This document shows positions 724-7,857 of a DNA stretch of 64,000 nt, in pieces. The stretch's first letter is position 1; the number at the start of each line of letters is the position of its first letter. The translations under genes and the position numbers were made by a program. The DNA comes from a virus (taxonomy: Duplodnaviria; Caudoviricetes): the IMG/VR virus record IMGVR_UViG_3300008116_000002. The stretch is one strand, 5' to 3'. Under the pieces are notes generated by a model. That model did no database searches. It had not been told where the DNA came from and worked only from the letters and a program-made list of their open reading frames with translations.

Positions 724-1011
724 ATGCGTATTCAAAAAGATGAGACTTACGAGCAATGGTCAGAAAAGGTTCGTCTTTTTGAATATGGAGTTGCACTGCA
801 AAGAATTGCTAAAGGCGACGATATAGATATTGTTTTGGAGTCTATGTCGAAAAAAATTAATCAAAAACTTTTGCATCCTTTGATCGAAAGCATCAAACAA
901 TCATGTCAAATAGATTATGATCCTTTGATCGCAAGAAAAAATTACGAAGAAAATTACTTAGGAAAAGCAAATCCTGTAGCAGATCATATGAATGATGTAG
1001 ACTTCTATTAA
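724..1011 (+). CDS. stand-alone protein resembling the glutamyl-tRNA reductase (HemA) C-terminal dimerisation domain
   Basis: VRLFEYGVALQRIAKGDDIDIVLESMSKKINQKLLHP resembles the HemA C-terminal VR..E..AL..L..G.D...L...L.NKLLH pattern; no catalytic or NADPH domains. Confidence 0.6.
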   Translation: MRIQKDETYEQWSEKVRLFEYGVALQRIAKGDDIDIVLESMSKKINQKLLHPLIESIKQSCQIDYDPLIARKNYEENYLGKANPVADHMNDVDFY

Positions 1012-1041
1012 TCACAAAGACCCCCTTAAACTTTGTGTCTA

Positions 1042-1049
1042 TATAAATA
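1042..1049 (+). promoter_or_regulatory. T4-type late promoter (TATAAATA)
   Basis: Exact TATAAATA 18 nt upstream of the HNH gene start. Confidence 0.65.
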
Positions 1050-1066
1050 GATATAAAGGAGGGTCT

Positions 1067-1495
1067 ATGATAGATATTAATGAATTCATTAAAACTAGTA
1101 AACAAGAACGGCAATCTCATTTATTATTATCTGAAAAATGTATTGAACGTGGGGGAAATTCGACCAATCACAAGGGGGTATTAGCTCAGTATTTGAATAC
1201 CTCTATCCCTTCGGGTAGAATACTTTTATGCCATGCGTGCAACAATGAAAAATGTAGTAATCCAAAACATTTATATTGGGGTACAGACAAAGAAAATATT
1301 ACTGAAGATAATAAAAAATGGAAATCTGTTTGGGAAAGAACCATTGAAAAATATGGATATGAGGAAGCCTGCAGGATAAATTCTCGTAAGCAAATTGGAA
1401 ACAAAAATGGTTCGGGCAATAAAGGTAAATCTAAAACTGAAGAACATAAAAAAAAGATAGCAAAGTCTATTAAAAGCAATTATAATAAGATGTGA
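1067..1495 (+). CDS. HNH (His-Me finger) homing endonuclease with NUMOD3-like tail
   Basis: LCHACNNEKCSNPKHLYWGTDKEN motif; C-terminal KGKSKTEEHKKKIAKS; free-standing between tRNA genes. Confidence 0.8.
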   Translation: MIDINEFIKTSKQERQSHLLLSEKCIERGGNSTNHKGVLAQYLNTSIPSGRILLCHACNNEKCSNPKHLYWGTDKENITEDNKKWKSVWERTIEKYGYEEACRINSRKQIGNKNGSGNKGKSKTEEHKKKIAKSIKSNYNKM

Positions 1496-1505
1496 TGTAT
1501 TTAAT

Positions 1506-1591
1506 GCGAGTGTGGTGGAACGGTATACACTTTGGACTTAAAATCCAACGCCCGTAAGGGATTGAGGGTTCAAATCCCTCCACTCGTACCA
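1506..1591 (+). tRNA. tRNA-Leu(UAA)
   Basis: Acceptor GCGAGTG/CACTCGT, anticodon arm TTGGA-CTTAAAA-TCCAA, long variable arm, CCA. Confidence 0.93.
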
Positions 1592-1622
1592 GTGTTTTAT
1601 ATTTTTATTTTAAGGAGATTGA

Positions 1623-2159
1623 ATGAAAACAGTAGGTGATAAACTTGAATCATTTTCAGTTACCGGTGTTAATCCCGGTAAGGATGATTTCTTTACTATT
1701 ACAGAAAAATCTTTTGAAGGTAAGTGGAAAGTAATTGTTTACTATCCAAAAGATTTTACATTCGTATGCCCAACAGAAATCGTAGCATATGATAAATTGT
1801 TCCAAGACTTTGCAGATCGTGATGCAGTATTGTTGACAGGTTCAACAGATAATGAATTCTGCAAACTAGCATGGCAACGTAGTCATGAAGATCTTTCAAA
1901 GATCAAGCATATTCAATTTGCTGACACCGCACGTGAATGGGGCGTATCTTTGATCGAGCAATTGGGTGTGTTCTACGCACCGGCAGGCGCAGCACTTCGT
2001 GCAACCTTTATCGTTGATCCAGAGAACACCATTCAGCACGTTACCGTAAACAACTTGAACGTTGGTCGTAGCCCAGAAGAAACACTTCGTATTCTTGATG
2101 CGCTACAAACTGGTGAACTATGTGCATGCAATCGCACAATCGGCGGAGAGACTCTATAA
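1623..2159 (+). CDS. ahpC: alkyl hydroperoxide reductase C (2-Cys peroxiredoxin)
   Basis: YPKDFTFVCPTEI peroxidatic motif; ALRATFIVDP; C-terminal GELCACN. Confidence 0.95.
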   Translation: MKTVGDKLESFSVTGVNPGKDDFFTITEKSFEGKWKVIVYYPKDFTFVCPTEIVAYDKLFQDFADRDAVLLTGSTDNEFCKLAWQRSHEDLSKIKHIQFADTAREWGVSLIEQLGVFYAPAGAALRATFIVDPENTIQHVTVNNLNVGRSPEETLRILDALQTGELCACNRTIGGETL

Positions 2160-2677
2160 TGACTGCTTGGGTAGATACACTAAAAGAAGTAAGTATTCCT
2201 GAGTATGCCAAGGATACTAAACTTAATTTAGATGCGGTTATCAAACGTAGTTCACTACCCGCAGAAGAGGCGGAGGCAATTGCTCTTGCAGCTGCCTTTG
2301 CTACAGGTAATAGTAAACTATGGACATGGCTTCACGATCAACTTACAGATCGTAAAGAGGCAGATGCCGCTCTTACCGCAGGCGCAATCATGGCACAAAA
2401 TAATGTATGGTATCCATATGTTGAAATGGCAGATGATGCGAACCTAAAAGGTCTTCCTGCTCAACTTCGTATGAATGCAATTGCAAGCCATGGTGGTACA
2501 ACAAAGGCAAGGTTTGAAGCATATAGTCTTGCAGCAAGTATTGTGGGCAAGTGTCATTTTTGTGTAAAAGCGCATTACGAAACTTTGAAGCAAGAAGGTT
2601 ATACTGTAGAACAATTACGAGACATTGGTCGTATTGCTGCAGTAATGAAAAGTGTTGCAAGTGTTTTAGCTAATTAA
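2159..2677 (+). CDS. ahpD: alkyl hydroperoxide reductase D
   Basis: IPEYAKDTKLNL N-terminus, ASIVGKCHFCVKAH CxxC-x3-H motif; ATG overlaps ahpC stop (TAATG), so start set at 2159. Confidence 0.92.
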   Translation: MTAWVDTLKEVSIPEYAKDTKLNLDAVIKRSSLPAEEAEAIALAAAFATGNSKLWTWLHDQLTDRKEADAALTAGAIMAQNNVWYPYVEMADDANLKGLPAQLRMNAIASHGGTTKARFEAYSLAASIVGKCHFCVKAHYETLKQEGYTVEQLRDIGRIAAVMKSVASVLAN

Positions 2678-2684
2678 AGCACAA

Positions 2685-2761
2685 GGGCCGGAAGCTTAAT
2701 TGGTATAAGCGTCCGACTCATAATCGGGGGACAGTGAGTTCGAGTCTCACCCGGCCCACCA
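2685..2761 (+). tRNA. tRNA with CAU anticodon (probably Ile2, possibly elongator Met)
   Basis: Acceptor GGGCCGG/CCGGCCC, anticodon arm TCCGA-CTCATAA-TCGGG, CCA; paired 1:72 argues against initiator. Confidence 0.88.
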
Positions 2762-2775
2762 TTTAAGGAGAAGTT

Positions 2776-3036
2776 ATGCTAGGTATTATAGAAAATGATC
2801 GTGTAGATAAAGGTAGATATACCTCGCAAGAAGCAGCAAATAAAGTAGGTGGCATTTATAATTTGGTTTTAATTGCAAGTGCCAGAGCACGAGAACTAAA
2901 AAAACATCAATCCGCAGATACTGCAAGAACTATGATTGTTGCGGCACTCGCAGATGTTGAAGATGGTAAGGTAGGTGCAGATTATCTGCGTAGGCATCAA
3001 AAAGATATTGACAAACAATATCGCAAAAGCAAATGA
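2776..3036 (+). CDS. rpoZ: RNA polymerase omega subunit homolog
   Basis: RYTSQEAANKVGGIYNLVLIASARARELK...IVAALADVEDGKVG matches the omega pattern RVTVEDA..KI.NRFDLVL.AA.RARQL...ALREI..G. Confidence 0.8.
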   Translation: MLGIIENDRVDKGRYTSQEAANKVGGIYNLVLIASARARELKKHQSADTARTMIVAALADVEDGKVGADYLRRHQKDIDKQYRKSK

Positions 3037-3047
3037 ACAACTTGTGA

Positions 3048-3076
3048 TAGACTTTTTCCGAAAAGTATATTATAAT
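3048..3076 (+). promoter_or_regulatory. sigma70-type promoter with inverted repeat in spacer
   Basis: TAGACT-N17-TATAAT; ACTTTT-tccg-AAAAGT at 3051-3066. Confidence 0.6.
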
Positions 3077-3123
3077 TGTACTGTAGTTAAATGCTACATT
3101 TTTTTATTTTAATGGAGATCAAT

Positions 3124-3375
3124 ATGTTGAAAGAACGTATTTTGAAAGTACTTAAGTCTGGTCGCCAATACACTCCTGCTCAACTCGCAGGTTTGACTGG
3201 CACTTCTGAGGATTCTATTCGTCCTCGTATCAGCGAGCTTCGTTCTGAAGGCTTCGCAATCTACACTAACAGCACCAAGAATGGCAAGACTGCATATCGC
3301 CTAGGCACTCCTAGTCGTAAGATGGTTGCTGCTGCTTATCATCTTTATGGCAGCGAGGCATTTGCTCGGGTATAA
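3124..3375 (+). CDS. winged helix-turn-helix DNA-binding protein
   Basis: RILKVLKSGRQYTPAQLAGLTGTSEDSIRPRISELRSEGFAI HTH pattern; RBS GGAGA before ATG 3124. Confidence 0.75.
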   Translation: MLKERILKVLKSGRQYTPAQLAGLTGTSEDSIRPRISELRSEGFAIYTNSTKNGKTAYRLGTPSRKMVAAAYHLYGSEAFARV

Positions 3376-3403
3376 TCTAATCCTTATTGCCTAAACTTAT
3401 ATT

Positions 3404-3952
3404 ATGAATATCAATTTTTCCGATCCTTCAGTTAAGAAAGAGATGAACAAACTAGTCGCTGCCAAGCGCAGTGGTCTAGTCAAGTTGACGCAAGATCAGC
3501 TTGAGAGTATCGCCCAATACTCTAAGTGGAAATATGAAGAGAAGAAGGCTTCTTTATCTCCTCAAAAGAAAGCAGCTCTTCGCAAAAAGACTCGTGCAGC
3601 TCACAGAGCTAAAAAAGCAGACCCATCTAAATTCGGAAAGACCGAATACACCGCTCTAAAGACCAGAGCGAAAGAAAAGAATCTGCCATTTGATCTAACT
3701 CCAAGCTTTTTGCAGGATCTCTTTGATACGACAAACGGTGTTTGTCAACAAACAGGTATTCCTTTTGATATGACTTTAGGCACTAAAAAGAATAGAAACC
3801 CGTTGCGGCCTAGCATTGATCGTATATCCTCAGATGGCGGATATACTCAGGACAATGTGCGAGTAGTCCTTACACTGGTAAATATTGCGAAAGCTGATTT
3901 TTCAGATGACGTAGTAAATCTGGTAATTAAGGCCTGGGCTGAAAAAATTTAG
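3404..3952 (+). CDS. putative His-Me finger-type endonuclease
   Basis: C-terminal CQQTGIPF...PSIDRISSDGGYTQDNVRVV...VN typical of phage SIDR-type HNH-like proteins. Confidence 0.55.
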   Translation: MNINFSDPSVKKEMNKLVAAKRSGLVKLTQDQLESIAQYSKWKYEEKKASLSPQKKAALRKKTRAAHRAKKADPSKFGKTEYTALKTRAKEKNLPFDLTPSFLQDLFDTTNGVCQQTGIPFDMTLGTKKNRNPLRPSIDRISSDGGYTQDNVRVVLTLVNIAKADFSDDVVNLVIKAWAEKI

Positions 3953-3967
3953 AGTTAGATCCCCTTG

Positions 3968-3992
3968 GGGCGACGAAAGTCGCCCTTTTTTT
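3968..3992 (+). terminator. intrinsic terminator
   Basis: GGGCGAC-GAAA-GTCGCCC followed by T7. Confidence 0.85.
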
Positions 3993-4009
3993 GTCTCGTA
4001 TTTTCTAGA

Positions 4010-4017
4010 TATAAATA
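4010..4017 (+). promoter_or_regulatory. T4-type late promoter (TATAAATA)
   Basis: Exact motif directly after the terminator, heading the internal-protein-like cluster. Confidence 0.75.
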
Positions 4018-4045
4018 TTATTAAATTAATATTTGGATGGAACTT

Positions 4046-5062
4046 ATGATTCAAGCATTTAAAGAATTCCTCACAGAAGCCAGAGAAACCGGCAAAGCCT
4101 CAGACGCAGAGGGCAAATTGCATGAACTTCTAACCGGTTTTCATTTCAATAAAAAGAAACACGTAGAATCATATCGTGAAGAAGGTCAAACACCTCAAGA
4201 AGTTCACGATAGATTAAAGTCCGAAGTTAGTGCTGCAACTTATGATAGAATTCATAAGCATGCTAATGAAATGGCTAATCATCTACATAACTTTATTAAA
4301 GCATCGGGCTTTAAAGGTAAAGTAGGTAAAACAGCCTGGACATCTCAGACATCGGACATTGAGCATTTTACGGGAAAGAAAGATCCGAATAATGAATCAG
4401 ATCTGATGACTACTTTGGTTCACGGAAAAGGCTCTACTAAACCTGAAGGCACCACTGAGCATATTGGCTTTAGTATGAAATATGCAGATAATGCTCCAAC
4501 ATTAAAAAATAAAACTCCAAAGACAATGGCTGAAAGCTATAACATGGATCATAAAACCTTAGCTGAACCTCACGAAGAACATATGAAAAATGTTAGAGTT
4601 CATCTTCGTGCAGGCGAAAAAACTTCTGCGGCAGAAATGCATAAGAAGTTTAAAGAATTAAAAGGTACAGATAAAGGTAATGCGATAGAAAAAACTTCTA
4701 ACTCTTCTCGTATTGAGATGATCGGTAGACTTCATGATCACCTTGCTAAAATGAATCCGCAAGAATTGCACGATCATATATTGAATCATATTGCAGGACC
4801 AACCAACTCTACTGTTATTATGGCAAGTACCTCAAGCGAAGGTAAACATCATATTCTTGATACCAGAGAGCACTACAAAAAAATATTAGCAGAACATAAA
4901 GATAGTTTATCTGTTAAAAAGGGTACAGGTACAACGATGTCTATTATCGGAAAAGAAGGTAAGCCATTACTAAATTTCCAAGCTGTTAATAAAGGCAGAC
5001 CAACTAAGACACCTGAGTTTATTGCTAAACCTGGTGCAGCTCTAATGAAAACCTCAGTATGA
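4046..5062 (+). CDS. putative internal head protein with PD-(D/E)xK-like nuclease motif
   Basis: Starts MIQAFKEFLTE (alternative ATG 4037); NESDL...IGFSMKY resembles the SD...SxK variant of the PD-(D/E)xK motif. Confidence 0.45.
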   Translation: MIQAFKEFLTEARETGKASDAEGKLHELLTGFHFNKKKHVESYREEGQTPQEVHDRLKSEVSAATYDRIHKHANEMANHLHNFIKASGFKGKVGKTAWTSQTSDIEHFTGKKDPNNESDLMTTLVHGKGSTKPEGTTEHIGFSMKYADNAPTLKNKTPKTMAESYNMDHKTLAEPHEEHMKNVRVHLRAGEKTSAAEMHKKFKELKGTDKGNAIEKTSNSSRIEMIGRLHDHLAKMNPQELHDHILNHIAGPTNSTVIMASTSSEGKHHILDTREHYKKILAEHKDSLSVKKGTGTTMSIIGKEGKPLLNFQAVNKGRPTKTPEFIAKPGAALMKTSV

Positions 5063-6234
5063 AAAACTTTTTATCCTTCCTAGCAGAACAAGTTGCACCC
5101 GAAAAGTCTAAAGCGGTTAAACACCTTTCGCATTTGGGAGGTGAAGCTCATTTCAATAGTAAAGAAGAATCTGAAGCTGATCTAAAACGATTAGAAGATC
5201 TGCACAAATATCTAAAGGGCGACCAATCTACAACTAAAAGTGTGGTGATTAAAGCAGACGGTTCACCTTCATTTGAAATGGGGCATGTCAAAAATCCTGA
5301 AACAGGACAAAGAGAATTTGGTGTAGCATATAAAGGTGCTTCTAAAGGATATGCCTTCAATCAGAAAGACATAGATGAGAAGTTTGGACACTCTGAAGGT
5401 TTACATTCTAAGATGTCTCAGCTATTAGAACACGGCAAAAAAGTTTTAAGTCCATTACATGGAGTCTATCAAGGCGACTTCATGGGCAGTTCTAAGGATG
5501 GTACGATTAAAAAAGAAGGCGATGAGATTACTCATAAAGAGAATTTAATTAAGTATCATTACCCTGCAAATTCAGAAGAAGGTAAGGCAGTAAAGCGAGC
5601 AAAAATTAGTCTATCTTTACACACTCGTATAGATAAAGAACAGCCTGAATATGAAGTAGACACATCTAAATTTTATTCTCATCCTGATGTTCATATCTTC
5701 AATAACAAATTGAACAAAAGAAATCTTAACTATAATTTAGATGATAGAAAAGATTTCGAAAAGCATTACACCAAGGCGATGCAGCATTTTGCCAACATAG
5801 ATAACCATGATGAGTTAATACAAGGTCACAGTCAGCATCTACACACATATATTAATAAAACAGTTAGAACGGGAACCGCACCTTCGCCTGCAGGCTATAA
5901 GAAACATTTAGATACTGTGCTACAAAAAGAAGTAGAAAAAGTAAAGAAGCCTGAGACTAAGATGAAAAAGTTCAACGATAAATTAGCAATGATGCATCAT
6001 GTGGAAACCAATAAACAACAATTCGGCGAACTGTTTAATGCTCACAGAAGTCTTGATAGAGCAAAAAATATTTTGTTAAAGACTTTAGAAAACTCTGGGC
6101 AAAATCAAAAACATACTATTGATGGCCAACATACTAACCCAGAAGGATTTGTTGTTGCATATAAAGATGGCTCTGTAGCAAAGGTGGTAAATAGAAGTAA
6201 AGAAGGATTTTCAGGAAAGAATTTAAATAAATGA
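5059..6234 (+). CDS. putative internal head protein, ATP-dependent ligase-like nucleotidyltransferase
   Basis: Starts MKNFLSFLAE; motifs IKADGSP (I), YQGDFM (III), PEGFVV (IV), AKVVNR (V). Confidence 0.55.
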   Translation: MKNFLSFLAEQVAPEKSKAVKHLSHLGGEAHFNSKEESEADLKRLEDLHKYLKGDQSTTKSVVIKADGSPSFEMGHVKNPETGQREFGVAYKGASKGYAFNQKDIDEKFGHSEGLHSKMSQLLEHGKKVLSPLHGVYQGDFMGSSKDGTIKKEGDEITHKENLIKYHYPANSEEGKAVKRAKISLSLHTRIDKEQPEYEVDTSKFYSHPDVHIFNNKLNKRNLNYNLDDRKDFEKHYTKAMQHFANIDNHDELIQGHSQHLHTYINKTVRTGTAPSPAGYKKHLDTVLQKEVEKVKKPETKMKKFNDKLAMMHHVETNKQQFGELFNAHRSLDRAKNILLKTLENSGQNQKHTIDGQHTNPEGFVVAYKDGSVAKVVNRSKEGFSGKNLNK

Positions 6235-7004
6235 TAAGTTTCAAATCCTACTTAGCTGAAGATACTACCAAGCATACACTTCATGTCTTTGATATAGACG
6301 ACACGCTGTTACATACGACTGCCAAAATACACGTAAGAAATAAAGAAGGTAAAGTAGTAGACACTCTTACCAACCAACAGTTCAACGATCACAAATTGCC
6401 TGCAGGACATAGTTATGACTTTAGTGAATTTAGAAATGCTGCAAAGTTTAGAAAAGAATCTAAACCTATTCATTCTATGATTAACAAAGTTAAGTCCGTA
6501 GCAAGCAAACCCGGTCACCATGTTATATTCAATACCGCAAGAGCAAACTTTGATGATAAGAATACCTTCTTAGGTGCCTTCAAAGATCACGGCATACCTA
6601 TGCATAAAATCCATGTTATCAGAGCAGGCAACATTAATATGGAAGGCCCTCCCGCGGAAAAGAAAGCCGTAGTTATTCATGGCTATATAAAGAAACATAA
6701 GTACAATGATGTACACATGTATGACGATAGCAAAACGAATTTAAGATCGTTTCTATCTTTAAGAAATAAACATCCGAATACAAACTTCCATGCACATCAC
6801 ATTGTTGGTTCGGATGCTAAACGCTTTGTGAATGAAAACTTTGCTGATGGTCGTAACCCAGAAGACAAGGGTGACAGCAAACGCTACAAAGTACCTACTA
6901 AAGCTAGTATTACAACCTTGCGTCGTGTTGCTAAAGAAGGAGGACGTAGAGGACAATTAGCGCATTGGATGGCTAATATGAAGAGCGGTAAACGTAAAGC
7001 CTAG
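6231..7004 (+). CDS. putative internal head protein, HAD-superfamily phosphatase
   Basis: Starts MISFKSYLAE; HVFDIDDTL (DxD motif I), FNTAR (II), MYDDSKTN (IV). Confidence 0.7.
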   Translation: MISFKSYLAEDTTKHTLHVFDIDDTLLHTTAKIHVRNKEGKVVDTLTNQQFNDHKLPAGHSYDFSEFRNAAKFRKESKPIHSMINKVKSVASKPGHHVIFNTARANFDDKNTFLGAFKDHGIPMHKIHVIRAGNINMEGPPAEKKAVVIHGYIKKHKYNDVHMYDDSKTNLRSFLSLRNKHPNTNFHAHHIVGSDAKRFVNENFADGRNPEDKGDSKRYKVPTKASITTLRRVAKEGGRRGQLAHWMANMKSGKRKA

Positions 7005-7056
7005 CATTATTAATAGGGTACATAGCAAAGTATAATTTCGTGTCAATGGAAAGTCA

Positions 7057-7857
7057 ATGAAAAGTATTAAAGAAAAGCAAAATTTGGTCAACTTGGCTAA
7101 AGCATTGGGTCAGAATGCTGACCCTACTTTGGTTAAAGAACTTGCTGCTTTCAATGCCATTAAGCAAGACGCTCATGCATCAATTAAAAAAACTGCGTTG
7201 AAAGATCTGACGGAGGCATTTAAAAAAGTAGATTTGGAAAAAGAAATACAACAGGTTATCGAATATCCTGTTCCTCCAACTTTAGATGAGGTGTTACAAA
7301 CTTTAAAAGAAGAGGATAACACAAATGAGCTGGTACAACCACAAACCGAAGAAGCACCCATCCGAGAATCAGAAACAACCGACCCCGAACCAACCCTCGC
7401 CGAAAGAGCCGCAAAGGTAATTAGCGAAGCTCCGAAAAAAGATAGCTTTCAACAACCTGATCCTGATCCAGTAGAAAAGAATTTTAGAGATGTACAATTA
7501 AAATTAAAATTCTTAGAACAAGCTATTGGTAAAATTGCAGCATATGGACCAGGCGGCGGTGCGGGCGATACAACATCAATTACATCGTATACGAAGTTAG
7601 TAACCTCTTCTACTTATGTGGTTAGTAGAAAAGATTACTATGTAGGAATAAATTACTCGGGTGCTACTACTATAACTCTACCTTCTATAAATGTGGAGAA
7701 TGGTAGACAGTTGGTAATTAAAGATGAATCTGGTAATGCAAGTTTAAATCCAATTACTGTTTTGGGTAATGTAGACAATGATCCGAATGGATTTATTATA
7801 AAAATAAACAATGGCGGAATACAATTAATTTATAGAAATGGTTGGAGAATAATATGA
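7057..7857 (+). CDS. hypothetical virion-associated protein
   Basis: 266 aa ORF; helical N-terminus, GPGGG linker, beta-rich C-terminus (DYYVGIN...TITLP...VIKDESG) seen in phage structural proteins. Confidence 0.55.
   Translation: MKSIKEKQNLVNLAKALGQNADPTLVKELAAFNAIKQDAHASIKKTALKDLTEAFKKVDLEKEIQQVIEYPVPPTLDEVLQTLKEEDNTNELVQPQTEEAPIRESETTDPEPTLAERAAKVISEAPKKDSFQQPDPDPVEKNFRDVQLKLKFLEQAIGKIAAYGPGGGAGDTTSITSYTKLVTSSTYVVSRKDYYVGINYSGATTITLPSINVENGRQLVIKDESGNASLNPITVLGNVDNDPNGFIIKINNGGIQLIYRNGWRII

Follow-up and report, generated by a model that had tools for sequence, protein, structure and literature searches.

A phage-encoded RNA polymerase omega homologue with a leader ahead of its conserved site-1 segment

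The omega locus and its surroundings

The DNA analysed here is a stretch of 64,000 nucleotides (the window) from a virus of the Caudoviricetes, IMG/VR record IMGVR_UViG_3300008116_000002, in which all large ORFs lie on one strand and include those for virion proteins, tail fibres, a primase and the ribonucleotide reductase NrdAB. A short ORF near its start encodes a real phage homologue of the omega subunit of RNA polymerase (Table 1). In many Proteobacteria the cellular gene sits in the order gmk-rpoZ-spoT. A neighbourhood of this type is absent at the window omega gene, which, unlike proteobacterial rpoZ, has a tRNA-Met gene on one side and a winged-helix gene on the other.

Table 1. Coordinates of the omega gene, its parts and the adjoining features in the window
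Feature	Position	Strand	Description	Basis
tRNA-Met (CAT)	2685–2761	+	ends 14 nt 5' of the omega ORF	ARAGORN
Shine-Dalgarno AAGGAG	2765–2770	+	5 nt 5' of ATG 2776	sequence
Phage omega (RpoZ-like) gene	2776–3036	+	86 aa, pI 9.6	profiles, PDB alignment, model, fold search
Leader of unconstrained sequence, codons 2–10	2779–2805	+	pN/pS 1.18; residues 1–8 modelled as disordered	alignment, model
Codons 11–21, D-K-G-R-Y-T-S-Q-E-A-A	2806–2838	+	most constrained segment, pN/pS 0.14; invariant or near-invariant columns	alignment, PDB alignment
Core omega domain, residues 22–66	2839–2973	+	A-x-A-R-A-R-E helix and D-V-E-D-G block	Pfam match, invariant residues
Conserved basic C-terminal helix, residues 74–86	2995–3033	+	net charge +3; pN/pS 0.28	predicted helix 75–85, alignment
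Sigma-70-like promoter TAGACT-17-TATAAT	3048–3076	+	between omega and the next gene	consensus scan, 10/12 matches
83-aa winged-helix protein (HTH_39)	3124–3375	+	immediately 3' of omega in 26 of 79 IMG/VR loci	Pfam
182-aa endonuclease-VII-like protein	3404–3952	+	third gene of the block	phrog_3322, 8e-31; synteny
Intrinsic-terminator-like hairpin	3967–3986	+	closes the block; followed by TATAAATA at 4010	sequence scan

The order tRNA-Met (found before omega in L001, for example), omega, 83-aa winged-helix gene and endonuclease-VII-like gene (182–188 aa) recurs in related contigs, and at related loci the genes 5' of omega include one for a DnaB-like helicase and one for UvsX, the latter recognised by its T4 UvsX C-terminal domain. 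Across the 26 loci that share it, the winged-helix protein is 80–95% identical, while the omegas there are 40–84% identical to that of the window; the endonuclease-like (44–88%) and ligase-like (26–80%) genes of the same loci are more diverged too. The winged-helix protein keeps this identity even where omega is just 40–54% identical, a conservation that suggests a very constrained target. Its gene has a sigma-70-like promoter of its own. A complex prediction for phage omega with the winged-helix protein scored 0.00, which gives no verdict either way. There are also weak matches of the 182-aa protein to PHROGs annotated as 'decoy of host sigma70' or as 'Srd anti-sigma factor'.

The T4-type late promoter motif TATAAATA was found six times in the window, not above the 10.5 copies expected by chance. 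Five of the six (at 1042, 4010, 9232, 21941 and 53597) are on the coding strand 25–34 nt 5' of an ORF start, a placement resembling that of T4 late promoters, and two of the ORF starts so preceded (1067 and 4037) bracket the block holding omega. Upstream of omega, an AhpC-AhpD peroxidase pair (1623–2677) lies between tRNA genes; pairs 68–80% identical occur in L005, in L017/L018 and also in L074, where the adjacent omega is of a very different type. Within the tRNA cluster, a 95-aa ORF (724–1011) matches glutamyl-tRNA reductase in its dimerisation domain only (PF00745, 26.2 bits), and a 91–93-aa homologue of it precedes the tRNAs and omega in L001–L004.

In three metatranscriptome runs, which come from two studies, contigs that match exactly lie over omega, at 2738–2917, 2827–2990 and 2796–2980. 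In all four RNA runs the late genes at 6943–7743 are uncovered, and such unevenness fits RNA rather than contaminating DNA; the contigs attest presence in RNA libraries rather than proving transcription, and they can neither rank expression nor map transcript ends. Contigs from two runs begin at 3083 and 3087, some 7–11 nt after the TATAAT at 3071–3076, and contigs from three runs end at 3959–3962, just 5' of the terminator-like hairpin, a weak hint that the winged-helix and endonuclease-like genes may have a transcript to themselves.

Omega fold, start codon and leader

Scores of the window protein against the omega profiles are marginal, at 26.9 bits for PF01192 (RNA_pol_Rpb6; cut-off 26) and 23.6 bits for TIGR00690 (rpoZ), which equals the cut-off of 23.6. 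The Pfam match spans residues 22–66 and nearly the whole profile (positions 4–51 of 53). A phmmer search of the PDB matched 17 distinct omega sequences (E 1.4e-4 to 3e-3), the nearest of them proteobacterial. An AlphaFold model built with 25 family members has a pLDDT of 76.5; its residues 1–8 fall below 50 and are predicted to be disordered, and its first helix begins at residue 17. In Foldseek, omega chains of bacterial RNA polymerases fill the first 31 places (probability up to 0.99), and in VIA the first 37 (Z 4.1–6.1, 53–70 residues aligned, rmsd 2.9–7.2). The Z values are modest, as they tend to be when a protein is small and helical.

The phage protein thus shares its family with proteobacterial RpoZ (E. 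coli 10ma_K and 9gdo_E, Francisella 6wmr_E) by profile and by fold. The RpoZ helix motif A-x-x-R-A-R-[QE] is matched by A34-S-A-R-A-R-E40 and the block E-[IV]-E-x-G by D60-V-E-D-G64, both invariant or nearly so across the 25 sequences, with A34, A36, R37, A38, R39, E40 and G64 invariant. Equivalents of Arg3 and Thr5 are likewise present: the PDB alignment with E. coli omega pairs R14 with R3, T16 with T5 and G13 with A2, and the fold alignments pair the model from residues 11–16 with chain residues 1–5. G13-R14-Y15-T16 therefore stands in the place of A2-R3-V4-T5, with which omega contributes its half of ppGpp site 1. Across all 25 aligned sequences, conservation of R14 and T16 is 90% or more. 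Unlike the proteobacterial proteins, to which it is just ~25–30% identical, the phage omega has an 11-residue leader, a Gly in place of Ala2 and a conserved basic C-terminal helix, and its two conserved blocks lie 4–5 residues closer together than those of E. coli omega. Met-Ala-Arg does not form its N-terminus; the Arg is residue 14, behind Gly13 and 12 further residues.

The first-pass annotation had read the ORF as an omega homologue with about 12 extra N-terminal residues, and profiles, PDB alignment, fold and start analysis all agree with it, the count being 11 residues ahead of the position of E. coli Met1 and 12 ahead of that of Ala2. The start at ATG 2776 is upheld as well. It is the sole ATG, GTG or TTG ahead of the conserved core, which begins at codon 13; an in-frame TAA lies at 2764–2766, a Shine-Dalgarno sequence is in place, and the ATG is kept in about 20 homologues. 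Were the rare starts ATT or ATA at codons 4–5 used, 8–9 extra residues would still remain.

A search of 5.8 billion proteins returned 24 relatives, of which 20 are 58–99% identical to the window omega and have their ATG 8–10 codons before an invariant D-x-G-R-x-T-S, so that leaders in this close clade are 8–10 residues long. At L005, L006, L007 and L010, four further loci that have diverged, the ATG follows a purine-rich box resembling a Shine-Dalgarno sequence. With the ATG kept in 20 homologues and such boxes in these loci, the leader is not a gene-calling artefact. The conceivable alternative, that the leader is untranslated or the omega ORF unexpressed, could appeal to the neutral look of codons 2–10 and to a comparable 'extension' in another phage omega clade that is a promoter misread as protein, and is nonetheless highly improbable given the lack of any second canonical start between the TAA and the core, the 8–9 extra residues left by ATT or ATA, the Shine-Dalgarno sequence, the frame and ATG kept in about 20 diverged homologues, and RNA-library contigs over the start region.

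That other clade (P0021/P0022/P0044), with its apparently conserved 14-residue extension (M-K-L-x-L-L-Y-N-N), was rejected as a second case of a leader. At L084, positions 5996–6050, the called 'extension' is a perfect TTGACA-17-TATAAT promoter followed by a Shine-Dalgarno sequence, with the true start at M-A-R-V-T; public gene calls in the clade are about 14 codons too long.

Selection on the parts of the gene was compared across five diverged omega genes (the window, L005, L006, L007 and L010). Leader codons 2–10 are neutral (pN/pS 1.18), codons 11–21 have the lowest value of any part (0.14), and the core (0.29) and the basic C-terminal helix (0.28) lie between. Presence and rough length of the leader are thus kept and its sequence is not. 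Neutrality of codons 2–10 implies a leader free of specific contacts, so that any specific action could come from Asp11 and Lys12 alone. In T4, internal proteins that are packaged and injected carry a conserved N-terminal capsid-targeting tag, about 10 residues long, with [LI]-x-E at its end. The window leader ends in I-I-E, and a reading of it as such a tag was rejected, as the leader is not conserved (pN/pS 1.18) and the motif is missing in L006, L007 and P0009.

Relatives in uncultured phages, phage type and host

A scan of IMG/VR gave 79 omega loci, the close ones with the layout of the window. The family profile matched 1,035 clusters (50% identity) at E ≤0.001, and 91 at E ≤1e-10. The nearest 150 clusters are short proteins of 49–175 residues (mostly 60–128) with the common signatures A-S-A-R-A-R-E and G-x-x-G-R-E-Y-L; basic tails are frequent, 47% of the 150 representatives having a net charge of at least +3 in their last 15 residues. 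P0158, a typical cellular omega, comes up with this profile only at E 6e-10. When conserved patterns of the family were sought in 185,579 species genomes, 395 stretches matched, none encoding an omega relative. Against 50,697 phage records, tblastn with the window omega found no match at E ≤0.01, and megablast with window positions 1500–5000 against phage records found none. Nine phage records that match a relative of the Met-Ala-Arg type (P0023) were rejected, since they look like host DNA or contamination: the same 46.2% identity recurs in records labelled Salmonella, E. coli and 'Campylobacter phage', and 240-kb 'Acinetobacter phage' contigs annotated rpoZ are among the nine. No bona fide omega of the family was found among the 50,697 phage records. 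A literature search found no published description of a phage-encoded omega; the automatic IMG annotation labels some proteins of the family 'subunit K/omega'.

Within the T4-like lineage that shares the 83-aa neighbour, omega N-termini fall into discrete types, each fixed in its clade: M-A-R-I-T-S, M-S-N-Q-I-T-S, M-K-D-L-D-R-G-R-Y-T-S, a longer leader followed by D-F-G-R-Y-T-S, and the 11-residue leader of the window. The Met-Ala-Arg omegas of sibling T4-like contigs (L020, L026 and L029 among them) and of other IMG/VR contigs belong to the same phage family and share both signatures, and in these three contigs the downstream 83-aa gene is that of the window. They differ in opening directly with M-A-R-I-T-S, which leaves the site-1 motif unmasked, whereas the window clade has its leader and D-K-G-R-Y-T-S. 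A tree built from 59 phage omegas nests the leader/R-Y-T-S group within the Met-Ala-Arg omegas with moderate support (85–87, not starred); the alignment behind it includes the N-terminal columns, which may bias the result. The leader looks derived from a canonical Met-Ala-Arg ancestor, on the strength of this nesting and of the siblings that have the same neighbour gene and start with Met-Ala-Arg.

No RNA polymerase family match was found among the large window proteins. The sibling genome G001 (190 kb, 100% complete by CheckV) encodes the T4 major capsid protein gp23 (E 2.9e-141) and an omega with a shorter leader followed by R-G-R-Y-T-S; it has no match to Rpb1_2 or Rpb2_6, the catalytic domains of beta' and beta, and a search for a T7-type RNA polymerase, run without a positive control, was empty. 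The earlier description of a T4-like phage relying on the host polymerase thus holds for this sibling, and as no polymerase gene was found in it beside the T4 capsid gene, its omega must act on the host enzyme. Among possible stringent-response partners, no DksA/TraR zinc finger was found in three related records; G001, in which none was seen either, has a marginal MazG-like ORF (L085, C1:113477-113701; 24.1 bits, cut-off 22).

Fifteen sequencing runs contain at least half of the sampled words of the stretch 1000–5000, 14 of them nearly all. Some are labelled freshwater or lake water; 11 may be the source data set, nine of these under the label 'fungus metagenome'. The window belongs to a freshwater phage that is T4-like, uncultured and abundant. 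Its host could plausibly be a proteobacterium, as omega is nearest to proteobacterial omegas in the PDB and the phage AhpC is 63–70% identical to many Burkholderiales AhpC proteins. The best AhpC matches (73–82%) come from taxonomically scattered genomes, mostly contigs of metagenome-assembled genomes, some of them perhaps phage DNA, and one endosymbiont chromosome, so the AhpC comparison is a weak pointer to a betaproteobacterial host.

The omega N-terminus and ppGpp site 1

On beta', the partners that bind ppGpp at site 1 are R362, R417, K615 and D622. On omega, residues 2–5 hold the ppGpp phosphates (PMC7676912), Ala2 and Arg3 supply most of the contacts to the 5'-diphosphate (PMC13192712), and an N-terminal Met-Ala-Arg, the MAR motif, predicts site 1 in Proteobacteria (PMC6912228); these studies confirm the contribution of the omega N-terminus to site 1 on which the first-pass annotation had built. 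Omega lacking residues 2–5 still assembles into purifiable E. coli RNA polymerase, and in E. coli deletion of these residues together with beta' substitutions cuts ppGpp binding just ~2-fold (PMC7676912). Loss of site 1 alone has a modest phenotype in E. coli, where rpoZ deletion causes a mild downshift lag and DksA/site 2 dominates (PMC7676912).

Since residues 2–5 are dispensable for assembly, the constraint on codons 11–21 is not explained by assembly alone and points to a function at the site-1 face. Furthermore, the invariant equivalents of Arg3 and Thr5 within this most constrained segment argue that the face is kept and not destroyed. We tentatively put first, without calling it probable, a remodelled site 1 with an altered, probably weaker, response to ppGpp. 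In such a mechanism, a working phage omega would be made during infection and would take the omega position on host beta', as expected of a phage without a polymerase of its own. The site-1 face would be rebuilt and not lost: the Arg and Thr that hold the 5'-diphosphate would stay, and the free Ala2 terminus would become an internal Gly, with a floppy leader of ~9 residues, an invariant Asp and, in most cases, a Lys ahead of it. Asp and leader would then sit in or over the phosphate pocket, and the response of the phage-loaded enzyme to ppGpp at site 1 would be changed, most likely weakened. The analysis itself establishes the homology and fold of the protein, its start codon, the pattern of selection on it, its setting in a phage and its presence in RNA libraries; that it would sit on beta', oust the host omega and alter the response to ppGpp is what we infer.

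In favour of remodelling, the N-terminus is where the omegas of the window lineage differ, and codons 11–21 are under stronger constraint than the core (0.14 vs 0.29). Against it, R14 and T16 are retained, so that ppGpp may bind normally with the leader simply extending into solvent; the leader is neutral; siblings that share the gene order keep an unmodified Met-Ala-Arg omega, and abolishing site 1 therefore cannot be the primary role of the phage omega; the weight of site 1 in E. coli is modest, the pointer to a Burkholderiales host is weak, and the profile scores barely reach their cut-offs. The reduced ppGpp sensitivity that the first-pass annotation had proposed is possible, with the sequence evidence cutting both ways.

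The main rival, which we regard as a fair possibility though a doubtful one, is that the phage merely tops up omega after shut-off of host gene expression, keeping all host polymerase furnished with it, its leader being tolerated and without function. A supply of this kind would favour beta' folding, stability of the elongation complex and processivity on long phage operons. It is in keeping with the greater sensitivity to termination and lower processivity of E. coli polymerase without omega (PMC13192885), with the 17–25% of elongation-complex particles that were removed from a data set for lacking omega (PMC13192712), with the canonical N-terminus of many phage omegas, including siblings that have the same neighbour gene, and with the neutrality of codons 2–10. 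It leaves unexplained why D-x-G-R-x-T-S should be the most constrained part when residues 2–5 can be dispensed with in assembly (PMC7676912), why all ~20 close homologues retain a leader of 8–10 residues, and why the phage family has diverged from cellular omegas in its conserved motifs and basic tail.

A stronger version of the remodelling idea, which we consider rather unlikely, is that the swapped-in phage omega leaves the polymerase blind to ppGpp at site 1, or locked in one state, with subunit replacement as a takeover strategy. The buried N-terminus and the Asp-Lys insert would be responsible, phage transcription would continue in starved, slow-growing freshwater hosts, and the N-termini of the siblings (Met-Ala-Arg, M-S-N-Q, leader plus G-R-Y-T-S) would represent alternative settings of one control.

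Less likely again is a docking platform, in which the leader, the Asp-Lys pair or the basic C-terminal helix would offer a phage-specific surface to a phage regulator or to nucleic acid. A regulator that acts via omega has a precedent in GafA (PMC9638019), the winged-helix gene directly follows omega in 26 loci, and the basic helix is under purifying selection in a phage family where basic tails are common. The winged-helix protein, however, stays 80–95% identical while omega drifts to 40–50% identity and changes its N-terminus, which is not the pattern of a co-evolving pair; the leader is free of sequence constraint, and adjacency alone is weak evidence. We give still less credence to a decoy or inhibitor that binds beta', or a host factor recognising omega, without normal function, for instance to disable host-directed transcription: the low identity to solved omegas and the missing stretch between the conserved blocks would suit it, whereas the conserved beta'-facing helix motifs are intact and, as is well established, T4-like phages need the host polymerase throughout infection.

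T4 re-programs the host RNA polymerase by Alt/ModA ADP-ribosylation and through AsiA/MotA, gp55/gp33/gp45 and RpbA, and some mobile elements carry TraR/DksA factors. A phage omega would have in common with these the strategy of re-programming the host enzyme and not replacing it; they act on existing subunits, however, and none replaces a core subunit, as the phage omega would on our reading. We know of no phage that replaces a core subunit of the host RNA polymerase, known takeovers modifying or binding existing subunits. Closer in its target is GafA, which activates transcription of the Rhodobacter capsulatus gene transfer agent through omega (PMC9638019). There too a virus-derived element controls transcription via the omega position of the host polymerase, but the regulator targets the host's own omega, whereas here the omega itself is phage-encoded.

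A whole phage-specific omega family thus exists in uncultured phages, and the window clade is set apart within it by a leader before a strongly conserved site-1 segment. In its omega, nature has run an experiment on that part of the subunit which is least understood: the ppGpp-contacting residues are under strong selection yet buried behind the leader, and canonical relatives are at hand. The natural variants bear on what site 1 and the omega N-terminus contribute, as well as on a possible use of omega by phages in nutrient-poor waters to evade the stringent response or to turn it to account. The phage omega is a candidate for a new way in which phages may retune the transcription enzyme of their hosts.
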